Part shown: in pieces, positions 29 through 56,847 of the stretch
Numbering within the stretch: position 1 is the first letter of the stretch
Layout of the letters: every line of letters begins with the position of its first letter
DNA from: an uncultured Sphaerobacteraceae bacterium
Lineage (GTDB): Bacteria > Chloroflexota > Chloroflexia > Thermomicrobiales > UBA6265
Length of the DNA: 64,000 nt
NCBI GenBank assembly: GCA_964371945.1
Contig: CAYJPA010000023.1
Span: 37 to 64,036 of the forward strand
Reading direction: 5' to 3'
Notes under the pieces: model-generated
The model's database searches: none
What the model saw: the letters and a program-made list of their open reading frames with translations, nothing else
Told to the model about the DNA's origin: nothing
Program-made: the position numbers and the translations under genes

Positions 29-123
29 GTAGGGGTGTATGGCATACACCCTGTTCGAGTTCACCGAGCCTCACCTAGAGAATGTGGTGGTAATGAGCGC
101 GGGCGTATGCCATACGCCCCTAC
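29..123. repeat. REP-like inverted doublet (REPIN/BIME-like): two GTAG-footed hairpins
   Basis: 29-51 GTAG-GGGTGTAT-GGC-ATACACCC and 101-123 GGGCGTAT-GCC-ATACGCCC-CTAC are near-exact reverse complements, each an 8-bp hairpin with GTAG at its foot. Confidence 0.75.
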
Positions 124-210
124 GCAATGAAAACGACCTTTCTTGCTTACGTGATCGGACTCTAGCGGAACGAAAAAGGCTGATATTAGAGCGCCAACAT
201 TGGGGAAGGT

Positions 211-444
211 TCAGACAGGTCGTTTCATGTCCCGCAACTCGTTAGCAAGGAGCTTGGTTCCCTCCGCACGCCCTACATCGATTCCACGCATCAGCTCCTC
301 GAGCGCAACGCGCTGCTCTTCGGGCGATTCCGAGTCATCCTCAAGCCATGAATCGAGGAGCGCGATGAGTGGCTTGTTTCGCTCGATCTGGAGTCGCCTC
401 TGTTCCTCGTCCAAATCATTGGAGTTAGGCTTTCTCAAAACCAT
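211..444 (-). CDS. Small acidic protein, probable orphan type II antitoxin
   Basis: ORF 211..555 trimmed to ATG at 444 (MVLRKPNS...). The segment NKPLIALLDSWLEDDSESPEEQ...LEELMRGID...KL resembles antitoxins that precede PIN toxins in Chloroflexi/cyanobacteria. No intact toxin downstream. Confidence 0.45.
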   Translation of the reverse strand: MVLRKPNSNDLDEEQRRLQIERNKPLIALLDSWLEDDSESPEEQRVALEELMRGIDVGRAEGTKLLANELRDMKRPV

Positions 445-553
445 TATTGGGCACCTCTCAATTCCAAAACTGCGATTAGCCTTCGGGAGTATAGGATTCC
501 CGTCTGACCGTTCAAGAATAAGGCTACTCGAACACCAAAAGGAAGTACTGGTC

Positions 554-1421
554 ATGAAGCGGATAACATTCGGAATTCAGACGGTGCCGAACAAGCCGTG
601 GCCGGAGATGGTCGCGACCTGGCAACGGGTCGAGGCGCTGGGGTTCGATTCGGTGTGGGTGCCCGATCTCTTCGTGCCGACGTATCACCGCGATCTGCCC
701 TTTATGGAGGCGTGGACGCTGCTCGCGGGCTTGGCGACCGTGACCTCGCGCATTCGAGTCGGCGTGCTGGTCAGTTGCAATACGTTTCGGCATCCGGCGC
801 TGCTGGCGAAGGAGGCGGTGACCGTCGATCACATCTCGAACGGCCGGCTCGAGCTCGGGATCGGAACCGGTTGGGTCGAGTTCGAACACGAGATGTTCGG
901 TATCCGCTATCCGGATGCGCCGGAGCGGGTCGCGATGTACGGCGAGGCGGTGCAGATCGTCGATGCGCTCCTCCGTAACGATGCGACGACCTTCGCTGGA
1001 GCGCATTACCAGCTCAACGAGGCGCCGTTCCGGCCGGGTCCGGTGCAGAAGCCACGGCCCCCGCTCACGCTCGCGGCGCATAGCCCGCGGATGTTGCGTT
1101 TGATTGCGCCGTTCGCCGACCGCTGGAACTCGATGGGGTCGCCGGCCGAGATGCAGGAACGTGGCGCGGCTTGATGAAGCGTGTCGAGCGATCGGTCGCG
1201 ATCCGGGCGAGATCGCCAGATCGCTGCTCTATGTTCCGGCGCTTGCGCCGGATGAGAAGCCCTGGGATTCCGTCGACGCGTTCGCGGATTTTGCCGGGAG
1301 ATACCGGGAAGCGGGCGTTGGCGAGCTCATTTTGCAGCCACCACCGGATGGGAACTGGGCGATTGTCGAGCGAATCGCGACCGATCTCCTGCCGAGCCTG
1401 AGGACGGCAAAGGTCGGGTAG
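554..1421 (+). pseudogene. LLM-class (luciferase-like, F420-dependent type) oxidoreductase, frameshifted near 1165
   Basis: MKRITFGIQT...GFDSVWVPD...EAWTLLAGLA...RHPALLAKEAVTVDHISNGRLELGIGTGW stops at 1174. The C-terminus (RLDEACRAIGRDP...YREAGVGELIL) continues in another frame to 1421. A sequencing error is not excluded. Confidence 0.75.
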
Positions 1422-1506
1422 TCCTCGATTTCGTTATACTCGTTGCACAGAACACAATGCCCGGGCTGGGGTATGAGCTCCGCCGGTGTGTCCGGAGACC
1501 CTTTGG

Positions 1507-1767
1507 ATGTCCAGCGATATCGCTAGTTTGCTCGATTTTTTCTTCACTGTGCTCACGTTCGCGATCATCGGGCGGGCGTTACTCTCCTGGTTCGATCCGG
1601 GATTCAAAACAGCCATTGGACAGATTATCTACAGCATCACCGAACCAATCGTTGGACCGATCCGGCGAGTACTGCCGTCGCTAGGGATGTTCGACATCTC
1701 ACCAATCATTGCAATACTCGTGATTCAAGTGATCTCCAGGCTGATCCAAGATGCTCTTCTGTCGTGA
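1507..1767 (+). CDS. YggT family membrane protein
   Basis: IIGRALLSWF...IYSITEPIVGPIRRVLP..GMFDISPIIA is the YggT signature. Confidence 0.9.
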   Translation: MSSDIASLLDFFFTVLTFAIIGRALLSWFDPGFKTAIGQIIYSITEPIVGPIRRVLPSLGMFDISPIIAILVIQVISRLIQDALLS

Positions 1768-1885
1768 ATCAGGCAGCGAGTCACTAACCACCAGATAACA
1801 TGGACTGGACGAGGCTCGCATGATGGCCTAAAGTCATGCCGTCATCGATATGCGGATCAGTGAAACATCACATGAGGGCGGAACG

Positions 1886-2008
1886 ATGGGCCGAGTAATC
1901 CAACTGGTCTCCATGGCGGGGGTATTGGTCCTGATCGTACTTGTGGTCATGGCGATCCTGGCGCTGACCGGCCAGTACGAACCGTCGTTCACAAATCCCC
2001 CGAGCTAA
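1886..2008 (+). CDS. 40-aa single-TM small protein (weakly Flp-pilin-like)
   Basis: Below the ORF-track cutoff: MGRVIQLVSMAGVLVLIVLVVMAILALTGQYEPSFTNPPS*, with purine-rich GAGGGCGG upstream. Confidence 0.4.
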   Translation: MGRVIQLVSMAGVLVLIVLVVMAILALTGQYEPSFTNPPS

Positions 2009-2166
2009 GACAAGCAGCCTTCTCGCGAACTGAAGCACACGTCGCCTTGGCGATGTGTGCATTCTTTGTGTTCGGTGCAGTCGGGAACAAATCAGAACGT
2101 CTCGTCGTCTCACTCTCAGGAACCGGGAAGATGCTCCGGTAGGTTTTCAGAGTAAGAGGTGTTCAG

Positions 2167-3087
2167 ATGCATTCAGTTCTTTCGCGACGACGTTTCTTGG
2201 GCGTGCTCGGCGGAGCGGTTTTCGTTTCCGCGGCCACGCTATCCGCAACTCGACCTGGAGTCGATTCCGTAGCGGCGTTGACCTTCATTTCCGGGACGCC
2301 GGGGCCGGTCGATCCAGGCGATCAGGTCCTGCTTCGCATCCACAACGAGGGTGGATTCGTACCGGTCGAGTATCCGCTGACCGCCATTCCAACCTTCTCT
2401 CTCTATGCCGGCGGCCGGGCGATCACGACAGGACCGATGATCGAAATCTTCCCGCAACCAGCGCTGCCAAATCTACGTGAACTGAAACTTTCCGGGGCCG
2501 GCATTGCGCGGGTGCTCGCGGAAGCGAAGGCAGCCGACTTGACCGACGGTCCAAACTATTACGGCAGCACCAAGATTACCGATGTCCAGACGACGTACTT
2601 CACGTACAACGACGGCGCGATCTCGAATACAGTGTCGGCCTATGCGCTCGGTTTCGACGAACAGTTGATCGCGAACCCGGAGGATCTTGAAGCGAGGGCG
2701 AAGCTGATCGAGCTCCAGTCGTTTCTGATGGACCTTACGACGAACCTCGCCCCGGAGGAGGTCGCGGAACCAGACAAATCCTACGAGATCGAGCAGATTA
2801 GGATCTACGCTCAGGTTTACGATCCATCCACCGTCGACGATGAGCTCGAGCAGCCGCCGATGCCATGGCCGCTGGAGACCGCACTCTCAGTGTTTGGGAA
2901 TCCTCTTCGAGAGGGGCCGCTGTCCTTGAACACCCGGTGCGGAGCACTCACAGGCGATGAAGCGACGGTCGTTGTCGAGGCGCTGACGAAGGCGAATCAG
3001 TTGACGCCGTGGGAAAGCAAGGGCGAACAGTACCGGCTTTGGGTACGACCGCTGTTGCCGGAGGAGAGCGGTTGCCCGGATCAGTGA
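2167..3087 (+). CDS. Tat-exported hypothetical protein
   Basis: SRRRFLGVLGG twin-arginine signal followed by a 306-aa acidic ORF; two C-terminal Cys. Confidence 0.75.
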   Translation: MHSVLSRRRFLGVLGGAVFVSAATLSATRPGVDSVAALTFISGTPGPVDPGDQVLLRIHNEGGFVPVEYPLTAIPTFSLYAGGRAITTGPMIEIFPQPALPNLRELKLSGAGIARVLAEAKAADLTDGPNYYGSTKITDVQTTYFTYNDGAISNTVSAYALGFDEQLIANPEDLEARAKLIELQSFLMDLTTNLAPEEVAEPDKSYEIEQIRIYAQVYDPSTVDDELEQPPMPWPLETALSVFGNPLREGPLSLNTRCGALTGDEATVVVEALTKANQLTPWESKGEQYRLWVRPLLPEESGCPDQ

Positions 3088-3309
3088 CGGATTGTGGATG
3101 GTTTCGGGCCAAAGGGGTGTCGATAAGCGCCGTCCAATCATCGGCCTTGGTTGGTTTGAATCGGGGGCGGACACGGCGGTTCGCCCCCGCAGAATTGTCC
3201 CATTTTGACCTGGTTCCGCCAGTACAGTTGCGACAACCGTAAGGGGCCGACCGCCGTGTCTGCTCTTACTCACACCAAGCAGTGCCTGCAGGCATATCTC
3301 GGGCTTTGG

Positions 3310-5220
3310 TCAGTCAGACGCGATGCCAGCCGTGGTTGGTTGCGATCCGAAGACGATGTCCATCAGGCGGAGGGCGTTGGTCGAGTTCGCGATCCCCGGC
3401 CGCAGTTTGTAGTCGAAGCTCATGCCATTTGCGATCATCGTGTCTCTCAAATGCACCGCGTGAGCGATCGTCGAAAGCTCAGGCCCCTCGGCCAGCGTCA
3501 GGTCGTGCGTCGAGACCGCGCCGAGGGCGCCGGCATCGGCCAGATGCCGGATAACGCGTCTGGCAGCAATCTGGCGCTCGGCGGTGTTCGTGCCCTGAAG
3601 AATTTCGTCGAGGAGATAGAGGAGTGGTCGACCGTCGGGATCGGATTCGTTCGCGGCATCGACCACGGCCTTAAGTCGCTGCAGCTCCGCCATGAAGAAC
3701 GAGACGCCGCGCTCGAGCGAATCCTCGACTCGAACGCTCGTCCAGAGCCTAACCGGCGGCGTGATCATCCGCGCGGCGCACACTGGACCCCCAGCGCCGG
3801 CGAGCACGGTATTGACGCCGATCGCGCGCAACAAGGTGCTCTTGCCGGACATATTCGAGCCAGTGACCAGCAGGAACGATCCCGCCGGTCCGATCACGAC
3901 ATCATTTGTCACTCGTTCGGTGTCGGGAAGGAGCGGATGTCCGATTCCTTCCGCGCTTACCGTTGGCGCGTCCGGGAGAACGTCCGGCATCGTCCAGGTT
4001 GGTTGATCGTGCGCCAGTCCCGCCAGTGCGGTCAGCGCTTCGGTATCCCCAATCGTGCCGAGCCAATCGCGGACGTGATGACCCGCGAGGCGTTGCCACG
4101 CTTCGAGCCGTCCCAGCACATTGACGTCCCAGGCGAAGACCGACTGCAGCGGGAGATACAGCAAGGTTCCAGGCGGGACCGCAAAACCGGCATGCTTGCC
4201 AAGCGTGGACAGGAGCGTCGACGCCGAATGCCCGTCTGATTTCAAGCGACCCCGGTTTGTCTCGAGCAGGCTCGATTGCCCCGGCATTGCCTCGATGTGC
4301 GACAGCAATTGTGCAAACTGGCTGATCGACGGATAGTGCTCGGCCACAAGCGCGATCCGTACGCGGGCCTCCGACGCAATGACCTGAGTAAGCACGATGT
4401 TCGCGGCCGCGACGACGATGCAGACGATCGCAGGCAGCCAACCGATGCCAGCGGCGATCGCCGAAGCGAAGAAGAGCACGGGGCCAGCGATGCTAAGTGC
4501 CTGGATGAGTGGTTTGCCGCGCAACCATGGTTCGCGCTCACACCACTCGAGCAATGGTTCGGGATTCGGGCGGATTTCGCCAATTAGGCGTCCTCGAACA
4601 GCCAGCTCCTGGCGCCACTCGAGCTCCGGCGCCAACTCGGTGACCGCGAGCTGACGATTGCGAATCTCGGCCGGCCGGGCTGGAACCAACAACCAATCCT
4701 GCAGCCGCGTCGCGCCCATTGGGGTCTCGACAGATTCGAGTAGGTGAAACAGCGACGCGTGGCCGAACAGGTCGAGATCGTTGGCGAAGGCGTGACCAGT
4801 CGCTGCTTTGAAGTCGTGGCGGAGAGGCAGCTCATTCCAATCGCGATCGCCACGCAGGATTGATTCACGATTGATGTCATGAAACGCCACGGCTTGTTTC
4901 AGTTCCCGCCCGATTCGCCGGTGCTGCCCGATCAGCAGGAGAAAAGCAAGCGCCAACACAGCGGAGGCAATGTAAATCCAGAGCGAGCCAAACTGAAGCC
5001 CGAGGAGCAGGAGCGCGAGTGTCGCGAAGAATGCGGCCAGACGGATGTTGCCAAGGAGATTCCAGCGTCGTCGCAGCTCGTCACGTTCGGCGCCGTATCT
5101 GTTTCGGCGGACATCGTATGCGAGACGCCGTTGGGCGGTCTCCTCATCGAGTTCGATAACTGAGCCGATGCGTTCGATCAAGTTTTCAATCCTAAGCGTT
5201 GGGTGATTCACGGCCGCCAC
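3310..5220 (-). CDS. Membrane-anchored MutS-family ATPase (domain V, no mismatch-binding domain)
   Basis: Walker A TGSNMSGKSTLLR, SFFMAEL signature, Walker B LLDEILQGTNTAER, STHD; hydrophobic helices near residues 58-95 and 240-280. Confidence 0.9.
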   Translation of the reverse strand: MAAVNHPTLRIENLIERIGSVIELDEETAQRRLAYDVRRNRYGAERDELRRRWNLLGNIRLAAFFATLALLLLGLQFGSLWIYIASAVLALAFLLLIGQHRRIGRELKQAVAFHDINRESILRGDRDWNELPLRHDFKAATGHAFANDLDLFGHASLFHLLESVETPMGATRLQDWLLVPARPAEIRNRQLAVTELAPELEWRQELAVRGRLIGEIRPNPEPLLEWCEREPWLRGKPLIQALSIAGPVLFFASAIAAGIGWLPAIVCIVVAAANIVLTQVIASEARVRIALVAEHYPSISQFAQLLSHIEAMPGQSSLLETNRGRLKSDGHSASTLLSTLGKHAGFAVPPGTLLYLPLQSVFAWDVNVLGRLEAWQRLAGHHVRDWLGTIGDTEALTALAGLAHDQPTWTMPDVLPDAPTVSAEGIGHPLLPDTERVTNDVVIGPAGSFLLVTGSNMSGKSTLLRAIGVNTVLAGAGGPVCAARMITPPVRLWTSVRVEDSLERGVSFFMAELQRLKAVVDAANESDPDGRPLLYLLDEILQGTNTAERQIAARRVIRHLADAGALGAVSTHDLTLAEGPELSTIAHAVHLRDTMIANGMSFDYKLRPGIANSTNALRLMDIVFGSQPTTAGIASD

Positions 5221-51507: not shown

Positions 51508-53676
51508 TCAGCGCTGCTGACTCCGGAGATCCGTGTGTTTTTTCCGCGCGACCGACATCGTCGTTCCGACCGCAAGACCCCGCGGCGTAAATCCCATCTC
51601 ACGAAGCAGCTTCAGGACCGCGGATTCCGCCCGCGTCAATTCGGCCACGTCTTCGATTTCCACCAACAGCGCATCGTTTGCTACGGTCACAACGAGTCCG
51701 CTCTTCTCGAACGCATCCCTCAGCTCGACAAGTTGACCGGCGTCGTCCGGGACGAGCCGTACCATTCGCGACAGGCGCACGCGCCGGACTGATTGCGACC
51801 AACCTCGGATCGAATCGAGCAAAACTCCCGGAATCGCGGATCCTGACTGATTGCTCAGAAACGCTTCGACATGGCGAATTTCGAAGCCGGCCCGCAAAGC
51901 GCGGGTAATCGATCGCTCAGTCACTTGATATCGACTCTCCGAACCGAGCTCGACCAAATCCGAGAATGCACTGACCGACCACACGCGTAGAGGCGACGGC
52001 TGCACGAGGTGAATCTCACCGTTGGGCTCGACACGAATCGCTGGACCGGCGCCAGCCGGTTCCTCCGGCGCGGGTTCCGTGTGCGCCAGGGCCGCGCCGG
52101 CGGGAGTGAGGCGCACGAGCAGCGGCTTGCGGGGAATTCTGATCAACTCGACGAGACCGAACCACGCAAACGCGGTGGCAAGCGCAACGGTCGCAACCTC
52201 AGCGATCTCTGCCCGCCGGTTCGCTTCTTCGCCGGTCGCCAGATCGAGGTTTCGAGCGGTCGCTACTTGCGAGGTTGCGCCGAGCATGTTTGGGTCACGT
52301 TCAGCGAGCCACGTTGCGACTTCCTCGAGCTCGTAAGTCGCGCTCCGTTCCAACACGGCGAGATGCGCAAGCAGCTTGAATCGGAAACCCGGCCAATCCG
52401 CTCCCCAAACCTCAACGTCGTCTCGCGACGATCCCTCGATCCAGGCGGAGCTGCTCAGCCAGGTTGAGCGCAAACGACTGGTTTGCTCGGGGAACGAACG
52501 ATCACGCCAGGTTCGGACTACTGGACTGACCTGAAACGGCTCGTCGACCGCCGGGTCTCCGCCGGTGAGGACGCCTTCGACTCTCGCGAGGTCCACCAGG
52601 AACTCGAGATATCCGCTGGGTGGTGTATCAGCGCCACGATTCCAGAGCATTTGGTTGAGCCATTGCAGCCAGCGGGGCGGCGCTTCATCGAAATCGAGGA
52701 TGCGTTGGTCCTGGGGCGGCGAGAGCGCGCGCAGGAGCGTCAGGAGATCCCAGGCAACGGCATAAGGACTGAAGTTGCTCGTTTGAGTCGATACGGATTC
52801 CACTGGTTTCGGCTTTGGTTTTTCCTCCACCGAGTGAGCACGAGGTGAACTGATTTCTTGGGGCACGAAGAGCCAGCGTGATCCGTCCGCCTTGTATGTG
52901 TGCCAGACAAGCAGCATCGCTTCCAGCTCCGCCAGGGCCTGCCGGAATCGTTGAACCTGTCGAGGCTCATCGGAGTTGAGACCTGCCGCCGATGCCGCTT
53001 CCGAGATGGGGACCGGCTTGCCGTCGCCCGCATCACGAAGGCGTTGCCAAATCTGAGCGGCATCACGTTTCAGGTGGGTTTGAATGTTGCTCAGTCGCTG
53101 AGGATCTCCTATGTTCTGGAGGATTTGCAGGATCAACTCACCTCGAGGCCGGAGGCCGGGGATGACGCGAATGCCCCAGTGCTCGGCCGCTTCCTCTATC
53201 TCGCGATCGTCACGCCGCGCGAGCAATGTCTGCAGCGGCTCTTCGCTAAGGTCACCGAGCGAAATCTCCTCCTGAATTCGGCGAAAGAGCAATGCCAGCT
53301 CTCGTGGGAGAAAGAGCCGTGGAGCCTCGCCGACCGGAAGCGGATCGTCGTCGCCCTCTCGCACGATGATTCCCTTGTGATATAGGCGTGTGGCGATCTC
53401 TCGAACATCCAACGCGGAGAGTCCCAACGCTTCGGCGAGCTCTGCCAGCGGGCGAGCCGCGTCGTCCCCTACCGCCAGCAATCGAATCAGCGTTCGCTCT
53501 TCGTCAGGCAGCCGTGACCAGAGATCGCGCGCTGCCCGCGGATCAGCCAGGGAACGGTAAAGCTGGGCGACCTGTCCCAACTTGTCGCCACCTGAAACAG
53601 GCACCCGCCAGGCGATCGCGATTCGGCTCAGTTCTTCGGGAGAGCGAGCATTGAGGCGGCCAAGAAGATTGCGCAT
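51508..53676 (-). CDS. XPB/Ssl2 helicase-associated domain protein (Helicase_C_3, Tfb2/p52-like), no helicase motifs
   Basis: C-terminal VEPNGEI...SAFSDL...YQVTERSITRALRAG...FL..QSGSAIP..L...IRGW; no Walker A or DEAH box. Confidence 0.8.
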   Translation of the reverse strand: MRNLLGRLNARSPEELSRIAIAWRVPVSGGDKLGQVAQLYRSLADPRAARDLWSRLPDEERTLIRLLAVGDDAARPLAELAEALGLSALDVREIATRLYHKGIIVREGDDDPLPVGEAPRLFLPRELALLFRRIQEEISLGDLSEEPLQTLLARRDDREIEEAAEHWGIRVIPGLRPRGELILQILQNIGDPQRLSNIQTHLKRDAAQIWQRLRDAGDGKPVPISEAASAAGLNSDEPRQVQRFRQALAELEAMLLVWHTYKADGSRWLFVPQEISSPRAHSVEEKPKPKPVESVSTQTSNFSPYAVAWDLLTLLRALSPPQDQRILDFDEAPPRWLQWLNQMLWNRGADTPPSGYLEFLVDLARVEGVLTGGDPAVDEPFQVSPVVRTWRDRSFPEQTSRLRSTWLSSSAWIEGSSRDDVEVWGADWPGFRFKLLAHLAVLERSATYELEEVATWLAERDPNMLGATSQVATARNLDLATGEEANRRAEIAEVATVALATAFAWFGLVELIRIPRKPLLVRLTPAGAALAHTEPAPEEPAGAGPAIRVEPNGEIHLVQPSPLRVWSVSAFSDLVELGSESRYQVTERSITRALRAGFEIRHVEAFLSNQSGSAIPGVLLDSIRGWSQSVRRVRLSRMVRLVPDDAGQLVELRDAFEKSGLVVTVANDALLVEIEDVAELTRAESAVLKLLREMGFTPRGLAVGTTMSVARKKHTDLRSQQR

Positions 53677-55099: not shown

Positions 55100-55333
55100 A
55101 TGAAATGCAATGACCCGGAGAACAGAATTACTCGGGATCCGGCCGTACTGGTCGGCAAACCTGTCGTGCGTGGGACGAGGATTCCGGTTTCTCTGATCTT
55201 GAACTACTTGGAGAATGGTTACACTGTCGAGGCGATTCTGTCAGATTTCCCAAATCTTTCTCGAGAGGATATCGATAGCGCTGTTCAATACGCGGAATCG
55301 CGGTCTCGCGAGCAGATTGAACTAGCTTCTTAG
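55100..55333 (+). CDS. DUF433 family antitoxin
   Basis: ITRDPAVLVGKPVVRGTRIPV..IL..L..G....IL.DFP.L..EDI..A..YA. Confidence 0.93.
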   Translation: MKCNDPENRITRDPAVLVGKPVVRGTRIPVSLILNYLENGYTVEAILSDFPNLSREDIDSAVQYAESRSREQIELAS

Positions 55334-55336
55334 TTC

Positions 55337-55705
55337 GTGCTCCGTTTTTTGCTCGACGCCAATTTGTCTCCGAGCATTGTCACAAGACTTCGGCAACAAC
55401 TTGAAATCGATGTCATCTCATTGATCGATGAGGGGCTCGGCTTTCTATCTGACAACGAAGTTGTTTCATACGCGAGAGCAGAGCACCGGATCATCATCAC
55501 CCTCGACGAGGACTTCGGCGAGATCTATTACCGACGTGAGCGCAACGCGATCGGAGTGATATTTCTTCGACTGAAGGATCAGTCGGCCTTGCCGGTCAGC
55601 AAGAGGTTGACAACATTTTTGCGCGACGAAGCCGCAGGAATCGATCTGGAGCGTTCGTTGGTCGTATTGTCGGAAAACAAATGCCGTGTCGTTTCAAGAT
55701 TCTGA
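55337..55705 (+). CDS. DUF5615 PIN-like toxin (VapC45-like)
   Basis: FLLDANL, LSDNEV..YAR.E.RIIITLDEDF; 3 bp after DUF433. Confidence 0.92.
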   Translation: MLRFLLDANLSPSIVTRLRQQLEIDVISLIDEGLGFLSDNEVVSYARAEHRIIITLDEDFGEIYYRRERNAIGVIFLRLKDQSALPVSKRLTTFLRDEAAGIDLERSLVVLSENKCRVVSRF

Positions 55706-55775: not shown

Positions 55776-56762
55776 CTAATCCTTCCCAAGGATCGAGGCA
55801 ATCTTCAACTTTGCCGAAATGGGCTGATTGATGCCCCATTTGGGCGGGAAAAAGGGCGTTAGCGGTTCGGGGTTGGGGTTGAATTTGGATTTGATGCGGA
55901 GGCGGTTGTTTGTTAGGTCGGGGAAGGCGACGCGGGCGTACTTGTCCACTTCGCAAAAGAGGTTTTGACGGTCGATGGCGTGCAAGCGGCGGCCCCAGAG
56001 GGTTTGGAACTCAAGACCGAGCCGCTCGAGCTCGGTTTCCTGATGCTCGACCATCCAGTGGATGACATCCTGCATCGACATTGAGCCGGTGCTGACGAAG
56101 CACTTTTCGATACCGCGGCGGGCGCCGGGACCGGGCATCGTGAAATCGTTCTCGCCGAAGTCGGTGAGCTCGCTGTAGTTGATGTCGATCGCGAGCTGAT
56201 AGGCCATGAACGGGCCGATCATCGGGTAATCAATCAGCGCCAGGTAGACCTCCTCGAACGTGCGTGCCGTTGCAATCTCCCGCGCGAGCCCGTTACGCAT
56301 CATCGACTCGACAAGAGCCAGGTGGTTCGTGTGCTTTCGGCGATGGCCGAAGGCATCGCTTGAGGCGAGGATGAATGCACCGGTGTAAATAGCGTCCCCT
56401 CGGGACAATGCCTCCTCGAGTGCTCGATCGTAAGCATCGAAGTCGAACGACCGGACCGTGATCGGACCATGCGCTGACTCGAGCAGCTGCCAGGTCGCCG
56501 GTTTGCTGAAGAACCGGAAGAGCATGATCCAGAGCAGCGTGTCGTCTGCTGAGTAAGCGTCCTGATAAACGACGTGACGGATCAGGAACTGCGAAACGCG
56601 ATCGCTCGCCCGATAGGCATTGCAGAACCTGTAGGTCCGAAGAATGGGTTCATCGGTCCAGGGTGATGGCTCGCCATGCTGGCGGCGGCAGAAGATCGCC
56701 TGACGTTCAGCGGCGAGTTGCCAATAGGTGTCGAGCAGATCATGCCGGGGCTTCAATTCCAT
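55776..56762 (-). CDS. aGPT-PPlase clade 1 / 5-hmdU DNA kinase helical-domain family protein (putative DNA base hypermodification)
   Basis: PWTDEPILRTYRFCNAYRASDRVSQ, LFRFF, HhH-like IGPFMAYQLAIDINYS, GPGARRG, QNLFCEVDKY, FFPPKW; no P-loop. Confidence 0.85.
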   Translation of the reverse strand: MELKPRHDLLDTYWQLAAERQAIFCRRQHGEPSPWTDEPILRTYRFCNAYRASDRVSQFLIRHVVYQDAYSADDTLLWIMLFRFFSKPATWQLLESAHGPITVRSFDFDAYDRALEEALSRGDAIYTGAFILASSDAFGHRRKHTNHLALVESMMRNGLAREIATARTFEEVYLALIDYPMIGPFMAYQLAIDINYSELTDFGENDFTMPGPGARRGIEKCFVSTGSMSMQDVIHWMVEHQETELERLGLEFQTLWGRRLHAIDRQNLFCEVDKYARVAFPDLTNNRLRIKSKFNPNPEPLTPFFPPKWGINQPISAKLKIASILGKD

Positions 56763-56784: not shown

Positions 56785-56826
56785 CAAAAACGAACGTCCG
56801 CCCCGGACCAGCCGTAGGCGGACGTT
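56785..56826 (-). terminator. Intrinsic terminator of the alpha/beta hydrolase gene
   Basis: Minus strand AACGTCCGCC-N14-GGCGGACGTT followed by CGTTTTT. Confidence 0.65.
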
Positions 56827-56847
56827 GTGGCTCGGGCGCTCGATCGT

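Follow-up and report, generated by a model that had tools for sequence, protein, structure and literature searches.

Introduction

The Pfam family PF18723 (HMUDK_hel), which formerly bore the name aGPT-Pplase clade 1, occurs in phage DNA-hypermodification loci and also in the validated defence system DS-4. The phage proteins of clade 1 (M6 gp55, ViI gp160, PhiW-14 gp72 and the C-terminal domain of SP10 gp186) are encoded together with a 5-HMUDK, a dUMP hydroxymethylase and a transferase of clade 2. The in vitro reaction did not require M6 gp55 (PMC8989533). In the clade 2 transferases (PF18724; M6 gp51, ViI gp247 and the PUGT PaMx11 gp46), an essential cysteine attacks C6 of 5-PmdU in DNA (PMC8989533, PMC11472151), and the roles of Cys247 and of the metal ligands E243 and T244 have been assigned (PMC11472151). 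DS-4 ('NTTI', DefensePredictor) is an anti-phage system of E. coli in which a 340-aa PF18723 protein is accompanied by a thymidylate synthase, a dNMP kinase, a TIR and Nmad2 (PMC13092281). At the level of the five-gene operon, DS-4 shows that a PF18723 protein can belong to a working defence system.

Whereas the phage copies of clade 1 sit among these partners, the gene described here stands alone on a bacterial chromosome. It was analysed within a 64-kb window, which is the whole stretch of DNA under study.

Results

The gene occupies an intact reading frame at 55776..56762 on the minus strand and encodes a single-domain PF18723 protein of 328 amino acids plus stop, as indicated by the ORF list, Pfam and the predicted fold. 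The frame and all four motifs reported in the first-pass annotation were present. That annotation had assigned the protein to aGPT-PPlase clade 1 and proposed an HMM search against PF18723, and the search bore the assignment out: the profile matched end to end (positions 3-279 of 281) with 338.3 bits and E = 4.6e-101 against a gathering cut-off of 25 bits, a score that places the match far beyond chance. The protein also matched phrog_2396 (E = 7.8e-61). Pfam returned no match to PF18724 (clade 2), NCBIfam gave no match, PADLOC held no model for the protein, and a sequence search of the PDB found no meaningful chain match. Two annotations were rejected. The NCBI name 'nucleotide kinase domain-containing protein' does not fit an all-helical, HhH-like protein in which no Walker A motif was found, in line with the earlier statement that a P-loop is missing. 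Because it has no P-loop, the protein is not a kinase, and the NCBI name probably goes back to relatives that carry a fused kinase, for example SP10 gp186 and L088. The match to phrog_800, 'terminase small subunit', was set aside as an annotation artefact; the same label is carried by the record of M6 gp54, the proven 5-hmdU DNA kinase.

Conserved blocks were read from alignment A1, comprising 23 relatives. The PWTDEPILRTYRFCNAYRASDRVSQ motif spans residues 34-58, and within it the N-terminal signature WTDEPILRTYRFCNAYRASDRVSQ (residues 35-58; 56589..56660, minus strand) aligned with FCNIFRELDTVT of M6 gp55, with W35, F46, C47, N48, R51, A52, S53, D54, R55, S57 and Q58 invariant. The IGPFMAYQLAID block (residues 182-193; 56184..56219, minus strand) forms the helix before the hairpin; G183, F185, Y188, Q189, A191 and D193 were invariant, and a weak hhalign comparison with the clade 2 transferases placed the block on GFGPWIGFKIADM. 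The hairpin itself, GPGARRG (residues 211-217; 56112..56132, minus strand), is a Gly/Pro hairpin of the helix-hairpin-helix type with G211, P212, G213, R216 and G217 invariant, and appears in the AlphaFold model as a loop followed by a helix at 212-221. The last block, QNLFCEVDKY (residues 266-275; 55938..55967, minus strand), contains the putative nucleophile Cys270 (codon 55953-55955). Here Q266, L268, C270, E271, D273, K274 and Y275 were invariant, and the counterparts are LCEFDKY in M6 gp55 and ACEIDK in the DS-4 protein.

The protein thus shares Pfam family, fold and signature motifs with phage clade 1, the common blocks being FCN..R..D, GPF.AY, GPGA.RG and CE.DKY, and it is 28% identical to M6 gp55 (E = 2e-23). 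The two differ at position -4 from the cysteine, which is Glu in the phage clade 1 copies and Gln266 here. The PF18723 protein of DS-4 is likewise single-domain and carries the CE.DK motif (25% identity, E = 1e-29), whereas only this component of the five-gene DS-4 operon is represented at the present locus.

The AlphaFold model (mean pLDDT 86.9) is all-helical and HhH-like. In Foldseek searches, the best match in BFVD was the C-terminal domain of the SP10 5-hmdU DNA kinase, F8WQ30 (E = 1.1e-14, TMq 0.78, rmsd 3.8), followed by phage clade 1 proteins and then by clade 2 'amino acid:DNA transferase' proteins (TM 0.46-0.50, probability 0.99). In the PDB, the weak best matches, all with E >= 0.1, were to PaMx11 gp46 PUGT (8z2m, 8z2n), which ranked above OGG1 and MutY; the weak matches to OGG1, MutY and AlkA-like proteins had E = 0.4-3 and TM 0.2-0.36. 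An ordinary repair glycosylase, which the first-pass annotation had named as the best structural match that would speak against its reading, therefore led in neither database. The HhH-like fold that it had proposed is supported, at the level of a predicted model, by the GPGARRG hairpin together with the weak structural matches to PUGT and to glycosylases of the HhH type.

Clade 2 has this HhH-containing fold in common with the 328-aa protein. A weak profile-profile alignment (hhalign, E = 0.017, probability 2.7%) placed C270 on the C-terminal clade 2 cysteine, Cys247, and Q266/N267 on the metal ligands E243/T244, so that the clade 2 Glu and Thr are replaced by Gln266 and Asn267 here. This register was readable, and still weak, only when a clade 2 alignment was used in place of the single M6 gp51 sequence, against which alignment A1 gave nothing in hhalign. 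Cys270 may thus tentatively be regarded as being in register with the PUGT nucleophile.

PF18723 is a large family that extends across most bacterial phyla including CPR (4,469 clusters at 50% identity), and its commonest architecture is a single-domain protein of about 320-340 aa. Clade 2 occurs essentially only in phages, with about 1,000 clusters found on contigs of <= 85 kb, whereas the PF18723 branch represented here is cellular and larger, numbering at least 8,000 clusters when grouped at 90% identity and 4,469 at 50%. Identities within this branch, which includes members from Chloroflexota, Actinomycetota, Cyanobacteriota, CPR, Pseudomonadota and Planctomycetota, were 45-70%, whereas those of the 328-aa protein to phage copies were 25-35%. 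Cellular-branch PF18723 was found on only three of 2.9 million viral contigs, and the description 'phage-type' in the first-pass annotation was consequently misleading. Its description as an orphan was accurate in that the gene is solo within 64 kb, but this state is not unusual: in the Chloroflexota clade, seven of eight members are true orphans surrounded by ordinary metabolic genes. The gene was present in only 4 of 41 related genomes, a patchy presence that is typical of accessory genes. A clamp-binding-like C-terminal tail (Q-h-x-h-h) was found in 26 of 119 homologues against 1.0 expected, which suggests a link to DNA in those relatives; the 328-aa protein itself lacks this tail.

Relatives of the gene occur in several kinds of cassette. 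XRE-ImmA-c2-[Tmk-]PF18723-MazG/MazG_C-ACPS cassettes under XRE/ImmA control were found at 23 loci in 16 taxa, and Nostocales relatives lie in PF18723-small protein-MazG/MazG_C(-DCD) cassettes. Most Nostoc copies that seem to be solo are in fact followed immediately by the small protein and MazG/MazG_C, which are masked because fusion proteins draw them into cluster c0. Both types are computationally predicted base-modification or defence clusters, and their PF18723 component belongs to the same cellular branch and is 48-67% identical to the 328-aa protein. The cassette versions differ from it in that their N-terminal motif frequently reads FTN where this protein has FCN, or in that they are fused to a kinase or MazG or bear clamp-binding-like tails. 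Further contexts include a Conexibacter relative with ThsB_TIR and SLATT, a Gloeothece plasmid encoding a patatin-like 'CBASS phospholipase', PF18723, MazG and a TIR, and L078, a TIR-kinase-FGE-PF18723 fusion.

In the 64-kb window, all other components of the XRE-ImmA and Nostocales cassettes are absent. Tblastn searches with the partner clusters (the thymidylate-synthase-like clusters c2 and c24, MazG/MazG_C, ACPS, DCD and the ImmA/XRE pair) gave no match at E 1e-3 or better within it. The same window yielded no match to a phage 5-HMUDK (queries M6 gp54 and Tmk-like fusion domains), to a thymidylate-synthase-like hydroxymethylase (c2, c24 and the DS-4 and M6 thymidylate synthases) or to the DS-4 thymidylate synthase and kinase, and 22 clade 2 transferase queries produced one chance-level match of 47 aa (E = 0.003). 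The earlier statement that the window holds no partner genes thus stands. Of the phage thymidine-hypermodification pathway, neither a 5-HMUDK nor an AADT nor a dUMP hydroxymethylase was found within the 64 kb, and the immediate neighbours of the gene do not point to a phage or prophage location.

Within about 6 kb, the neighbours are a DUF433/DUF5615 toxin-antitoxin-like pair, an alpha/beta hydrolase, a DAO oxidoreductase, a multicopper oxidase, a ZIP-like transporter, a GNAT acetyltransferase and Mrp/ApbC; over this distance there is no TIR or Nmad2, nor, as the first-pass annotation had also observed, any phage gene. These chromosomal, metabolic neighbours show partial synteny with related genomes, the position downstream of Mrp being common to the gene here and to L015 and L016, and the GC content of the gene resembles that of its surroundings. 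A chromosomal position of such stability is as compatible with a host function as with a role in defence. The DUF433/DUF5615 pair was considered as a functional partner and found unsupported, since it is convergent, is lower in GC (0.51 vs. 0.57-0.62) and is not kept beside relatives. L016 bears a different pair, of the CopG type.

Pattern scanning, RNA folding and direct reading located an intrinsic-terminator-like hairpin with a U5 run, belonging to the upstream alpha/beta-hydrolase gene, at 56786..56828 on the minus strand. The RNA fold gave a 13-bp stem at 56828-56793, followed by the U5 run at 56790-56786. From its end to the ATG at 56762 there are 23 nt, in agreement with the first-pass annotation, and these 23 nt contain no recognisable promoter or Shine-Dalgarno sequence.

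The gene is intact, well conserved and selectively maintained. The protein keeps 73 of the 76 highly conserved columns (those conserved at >= 95% in 74 relatives from other phyla), with mostly conservative changes, and dN/dS between orphan pairs was 0.12-0.16. Since the orphan state is common to seven divergent Chloroflexota genomes, among which dS is saturated, it is long-lasting.

Discussion

We tentatively propose, with a confidence somewhat short of even, that the gene encodes a stand-alone, Cys-dependent base-flipping enzyme whose targets are 5-substituted pyrimidines in DNA that is probably of foreign origin. This cellular-branch PF18723 protein would be a DNA enzyme of the HhH type. The invariant Cys270 of its FCE.DKY motif would act by the mechanism demonstrated for the clade 2 amino-acid:DNA transferases, with attack at C6 of a 5-substituted pyrimidine. 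Because the window encodes neither MazG nor a kinase for DNA or nucleotides, and lacks a hydroxymethyl-pyrimidine synthase, the protein cannot by itself assemble a hypermodification and has to obtain its substrate from another source, most likely foreign (phage) DNA with 5-hydroxymethyl- or 5-phosphomethyl-pyrimidines. With a foreign-DNA substrate, the protein would be related to the PF18723-containing defence cassettes as a minimal form that lacks an effector. We infer DNA as the substrate, Cys270 as the nucleophile and an anti-phage role; among the readings offered in the first-pass annotation, that of a stand-alone reader or processor, possibly anti-phage, appears to be the best. To our knowledge, no stand-alone PF18723 protein has a known activity. 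The points that weigh against this explanation are the weak alignment between clades 1 and 2, the Gln266/Asn267 pair, the lack of a tail, the dispensability of the phage paralogue M6 gp55 in vitro, the lack of a PADLOC model, neighbours that are ordinary metabolic genes except for the toxin-antitoxin-like pair, the stable chromosomal position, and the short gap after the terminator with no recognisable promoter or Shine-Dalgarno sequence.

The protein might instead work with unlinked partners (a hydroxymethylase, a kinase, MazG/MazG_C or an effector) located elsewhere in the 5.4-Mb genome, forming a split version of the pathway that is clustered in relatives. The closest clustered relatives (L011/L002 and L009), which are 66-68% identical, adjoin a thymidylate-synthase-like gene and an ImmA/XRE/ACPS set; about 23 of 82 close relatives are held in full cassettes, and fusions to a kinase or to MazG exist, all of which would favour such a system. 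The genes of defence and modification cassettes normally lie close together, however, and no partner was found in the 64 kb. Moreover, with seven of the eight Chloroflexota copies being orphans in unrelated neighbourhoods, repeated independent unlinking would be needed, and we regard a split system as unlikely.

It is similarly doubtful that the gene encodes a stand-alone housekeeping or repair enzyme of the HhH type, which would deal with pyrimidines of the cell's DNA that are oxidised or damaged in another way (e.g., 5-hydroxymethyl- or 5-formyl-uracil) and which in some relatives would be recruited by the sliding clamp. The HhH-GPD glycosylases (OGG1, MutY and AlkA) have the Gly/Pro hairpin and an all-helical, two-lobed fold in common with the 328-aa protein, and the weak fold similarity to them is consistent with repair, as are the stable chromosomal position among metabolic genes, the purifying selection and the clamp-binding-like tails of many relatives. 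In these glycosylases, the catalytic Asp lies about 20 residues after the hairpin, but this position is not conserved in alignment A1, where the 328-aa protein has D231 and its relatives have R, P, A or I. The closest folds are a phage transferase and a kinase-helical domain, not glycosylases, and in relatives the gene is accompanied by those for TIR, SLATT, patatin and MazG proteins. The occurrence of the gene in so few of the related genomes (4 of 41) is also unlike that of a core repair function.

It is very improbable that a hypermodification or defence cluster was lost and that the gene survives from it without a function, a reading that the first-pass annotation had also considered. In its favour, the clustered relatives L011 and L009 show that the same bacterial family does include such a cluster, and a terminator lies directly upstream with no obvious promoter. 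Against it, the frame is intact, the protein retains 73 of the 76 conserved columns, dN/dS is 0.12-0.16 even for a pair of orphans, and the orphan state has long persisted in seven divergent Chloroflexota genomes.

The proposal of a stand-alone enzyme acting on probably foreign DNA could be taken further, to the view that solo PF18723 proteins are self-sufficient, single-gene anti-phage enzymes that act without a kinase, synthase or effector, although we consider this quite unlikely. In that case, Cys270 would attack 5-hydroxymethyl- or 5-phosphomethyl-pyrimidines exposed during the replication of hypermodifying phages, and either covalent trapping of the enzyme on the phage DNA or diversion of the reactive exocyclic-methylene intermediate would sabotage the protective hypermodification of the phage. 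If this were true, DS-4 and the cassettes with MazG/MazG_C, TIR or patatin would be elaborations of a minimal core.

The locus adds no new architecture, and its value lies in representing the solo state. The existence of a long-lived orphan clade under purifying selection suggests that the PF18723 domain is useful by itself. With one gene and one candidate cysteine, the solo copy could provide a simple test case for the chemistry common to the cassettes.

Gene, protein and predicted structure

The PF18723 gene (55776-56762, minus strand) encodes a 328-residue protein and occurred as one copy in its own 5.4-Mb assembly, with a GC content (0.57-0.59) similar to that of its surroundings. The first-pass annotation had placed the product in the right family (HMUDK_hel, formerly aGPT-Pplase clade 1), and all of the motifs that it listed were present in this ORF. 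Its claim that the product has no P-loop was consistent with the lack of a Walker A motif in the protein, and the terminator described about 23 nt before the ATG corresponded to a terminator-like hairpin (56828-56786; 13-bp stem followed by UUUUU) ending 23 nt upstream of the ATG. The protein also matched phrog_2396 (unknown function). A match to phrog_800, "terminase small subunit", was rejected as spurious and probably arose from mislabelled phage records, since this label is carried in public records by gp54 of phage M6 (L090, 5186-5749), a proven 5-hmdU DNA kinase, and likewise by a clade-1 gene of a Klebsiella phage.

The AlphaFold2 model was all-helical (mean pLDDT 86.9, pTM 0.84), and its best BFVD match was the C-terminal domain of the SP10 5-hmdU DNA kinase (637 aa; TMq 0.78, E = 1.1e-14), followed by phage clade-1 proteins and then by clade-2 "amino acid:DNA transferase" proteins (TM 0.46-0.50, probability 0.99). 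A search of the PDB with the model gave no match at E 1e-3 or better; the top-ranked structures were those of PaMx11 gp46 PUGT (8z2m, 8z2n; probability 0.85-0.87), with OGG1, MutY and AlkA-like glycosylases ranking below them.

A widespread cellular branch of the family

A search of 5.8 billion proteins with the window protein returned at least 8,000 candidates, of which at least 7,996 had E <= 1e-5. Among the matches listed, the best were single-domain proteins (316-390 aa, 52-71% identity); their sources were Thermomicrobiales, Conexibacter and a large number of metagenomes, and the contigs that carry them reached 1.87 Mb. NCBI names for the homologues were "nucleotide kinase domain-containing protein" and "putative DNA base hypermodification protein". 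Exhaustive phmmer against 1.84 billion 50%-identity representatives identified 4,469 clusters, and about three-quarters of the best 150 had single-domain length, the remainder carrying N-terminal extensions of ~240-270 aa or C-terminal extensions. When each species was represented by a single genome, relatives of roughly 48-66% identity were encoded at 562 loci or more, in taxa including Chloroflexota, Actinomycetota, Cyanobacteriota, CPR lineages, Bacillota, Pseudomonadota, Planctomycetota, Acidobacteriota and Bacteroidota, and 22 plasmids carried a PF18723 gene. Phage homologues, including M6 ORF055 (gp55) and those of ViI-like phages, were just 25-35% identical to the window protein, and cellular-type motifs were found on only three of 2.9 million viral contigs. 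The protein belongs to a cellular branch, and the earlier description of it as "phage-type" was wrong. Clade 2 (PF18724), unlike this branch, comprised ~1,000 clusters, every one of them on contigs of phage size. The clades themselves were reportedly defined by Iyer et al. in 2013.

Orphan state and conservation

None of the partner families known from relatives had a tblastn match in the 64-kb window, nor did phage 5-hmdU DNA kinases, clade-2 transferases, or the thymidylate synthase and kinase of the defence system DS-4; the gene is thus solo in the window, as had been proposed. Upstream, on the same strand, lies a secreted alpha/beta hydrolase gene, and the farther neighbours encode a DAO oxidoreductase, a multicopper oxidase, a ZIP-like transporter, a cupredoxin, a GNAT acetyltransferase, Mrp/ApbC and a MarR regulator. 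Downstream and convergent is a toxin-antitoxin-like pair (55100-55705, plus strand) of DUF433 (77 aa) and DUF5615 PIN-like (122 aa) genes, the second start lying 4 nt past the end of the first gene. The GC content of this pair (0.51) was below that of its surroundings; the pair probably represents a toxin-antitoxin module that inserted at a variable site, and a related genome (L005/L016) has a different pair, of CopG type, close to its own PF18723 gene. The sole Pfam signal of a 722-aa protein (51508-53676, minus strand) was a sub-threshold Helicase_C_3 match near its C-terminus (31.6 bits vs a cut-off of 34.2); in locus L012, too, a homologue of this protein is found close to the PF18723 gene.

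With hidden MazG neighbours accounted for, true orphans numbered ~17 of 82: all but one of the eight Chloroflexota sequences, the CPR copies and a small number of others. In a maximum-likelihood tree, the window protein fell inside a Chloroflexota clade (support 91/90) with an Actinomycetota clade as its sister (99/95), and orphan and cassette states were interleaved across the tree. Other Chloroflexota orphans adjoined unrelated metabolic genes (hydantoinase B, SDR, ABC ATPase, beta-lactamase-like, luciferase-like and LacI). The upstream Mrp gene is common to the window and to loci L015 and L016, and downstream genes recur in L012; this indicates that the PF18723 gene has long resided at one chromosomal region. 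Its distribution is patchy: 4 of 25 genomes of the same family carried it, against none of 16 from the order's other families. Across 74 relatives of other phyla, 76 columns are >=95% conserved; the window protein matches 73 of them and departs from three (K->R, I->V, R->W). Nei-Gojobori dN/dS, with dS near saturation, was 0.12-0.16 between the window gene and six orphans and 0.14-0.15 between other orphan pairs. This conservation refutes the suggestion that the gene is a remnant.

Gene cassettes of relatives

The ORFs of 81 loci, taken with 10-kb flanks, were all clustered together with those of the window, and representatives were annotated by Pfam. Cassette A (23 loci, 16 taxa) encodes, in order, a ~100-aa protein, an XRE HTH protein, an ImmA/M78 peptidase, "c2", PF18723, MazG+MazG_C (PF18722) and a 4'-phosphopantetheinyl transferase. 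PF18723 sometimes has an N-terminal thymidylate-kinase-like domain (e.g., L088, 591 aa), MazG+MazG_C is sometimes fused (L086, 654 aa), and some loci contain a dCTP-deaminase-like gene. The c2 protein (~270 aa) had no Pfam match; it is the most conserved cassette partner (L011:7290-8219, minus strand; L079:9040-9873, plus strand; 21 other loci), and its "PFPCLQH...YATQ" stretch recalls, by eye, the catalytic PCH region of thymidylate synthases. Cassette B (Nostocales) comprises PF18723 (~395 aa), a ~165-aa protein, MazG/MazG_C and sometimes DCD. In arrangement C (Solirubrobacterales, Conexibacter), the associated genes encode TIR-like/ThsB and SLATT proteins, an unannotated 190-aa protein and a ~700-aa metallophosphatase. 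Arrangement D, seen in some loci, places the PF18723 gene next to a PF00303 thymidylate-synthase-like gene; the clustered relatives most similar to the window protein belong here, namely L011/L002 (66%) and L009 (68%, from the same bacterial family).

Arrangement E, on a 22.6-kb plasmid of Gloeothece citriformis PCC 7424 (pP742404, L094), combines a patatin-like "CBASS phospholipase", PF18723, MazG and TIR. In this apparent operon (114-4660), the phospholipase gene, labelled "CBASS cGAMP-activated", overlaps the next gene, MazG is a MazG-family pyrophosphohydrolase, a hypothetical protein is also encoded, and no CD-NTase is annotated beside the genes. Arrangement F is a 1,191-aa fusion (L078, 7436-11011, plus strand) of an N-terminal TIR-like domain, a Ser/Thr protein kinase, an FGE/sulfatase-modifying-like domain and a C-terminal PF18723, all but the last identified by eye; a 571-aa thymidylate-synthase-like protein is encoded downstream. 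The DefensePredictor study and its supplements (PMC13092281) describe DS-4 ("NTTI"), validated in E. coli MG1655, as a system of thymidylate synthase, dNMP kinase, PF18723 protein (340 aa), TIR and Nmad2. The DS-4 PF18723 protein was 25% identical to the window protein, and both have the CE.DK motif.

Possible substrate and candidate mechanism

A pentapeptide, Q-[LMIVSA]-x-[LMIV]-[LFIVMP], located 0-4 residues from the C-terminus, was found in 26 of 119 close homologues (P0003-P0121). Shuffled tails gave an expectation of 1.0 (maximum 5 of 500), and matches inside the proteins were rare (2 of 2,686 internal windows). Examples are QLVLP, QMALL, QSLLVPA and QIALPI, and the Nostoc proteins have QQLCLFE at their ends; no such tail is present in the window protein (C-terminus encoded at 55779-55830). 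The tails resemble the beta-sliding-clamp-binding motif, a hint that DNA may be the substrate at the family level.

In clade 2, one Cys is essential (Cys247 in PUGT) and has been proposed to attack C6 of 5-PmdU, with Glu243 and Thr244 holding a metal ion (PMC8989533, PMC11472151, PMC13458397). A profile-profile comparison of clade 2 with the alignment of relatives of the window protein was weak (E = 0.017) yet coherent, pairing GPF with GPW, R258-P with R235-P, Q266/N267 with E243/T244 and C270 with C247. Cys270, E271, D273, K274 and Y275 were invariant among the relatives, and the Asp position of HhH-GPD glycosylases was not conserved. Together, these features suggested a working mechanism in which an HhH-type module would flip the base and Cys270 would attack a 5-substituted pyrimidine.

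Overall, the first-pass interpretation stood as to family and solo status and failed as to "phage-type" and "remnant"; its reading as part of a system split across the genome may be an alternative, and its reading of the product as an anti-phage processor is plausible. Stand-alone bacterial homologues have already been noted (PMC5889632) and carry annotations by the thousand; thus, the locus adds one more example to a kind that is known but functionally uncharacterised.
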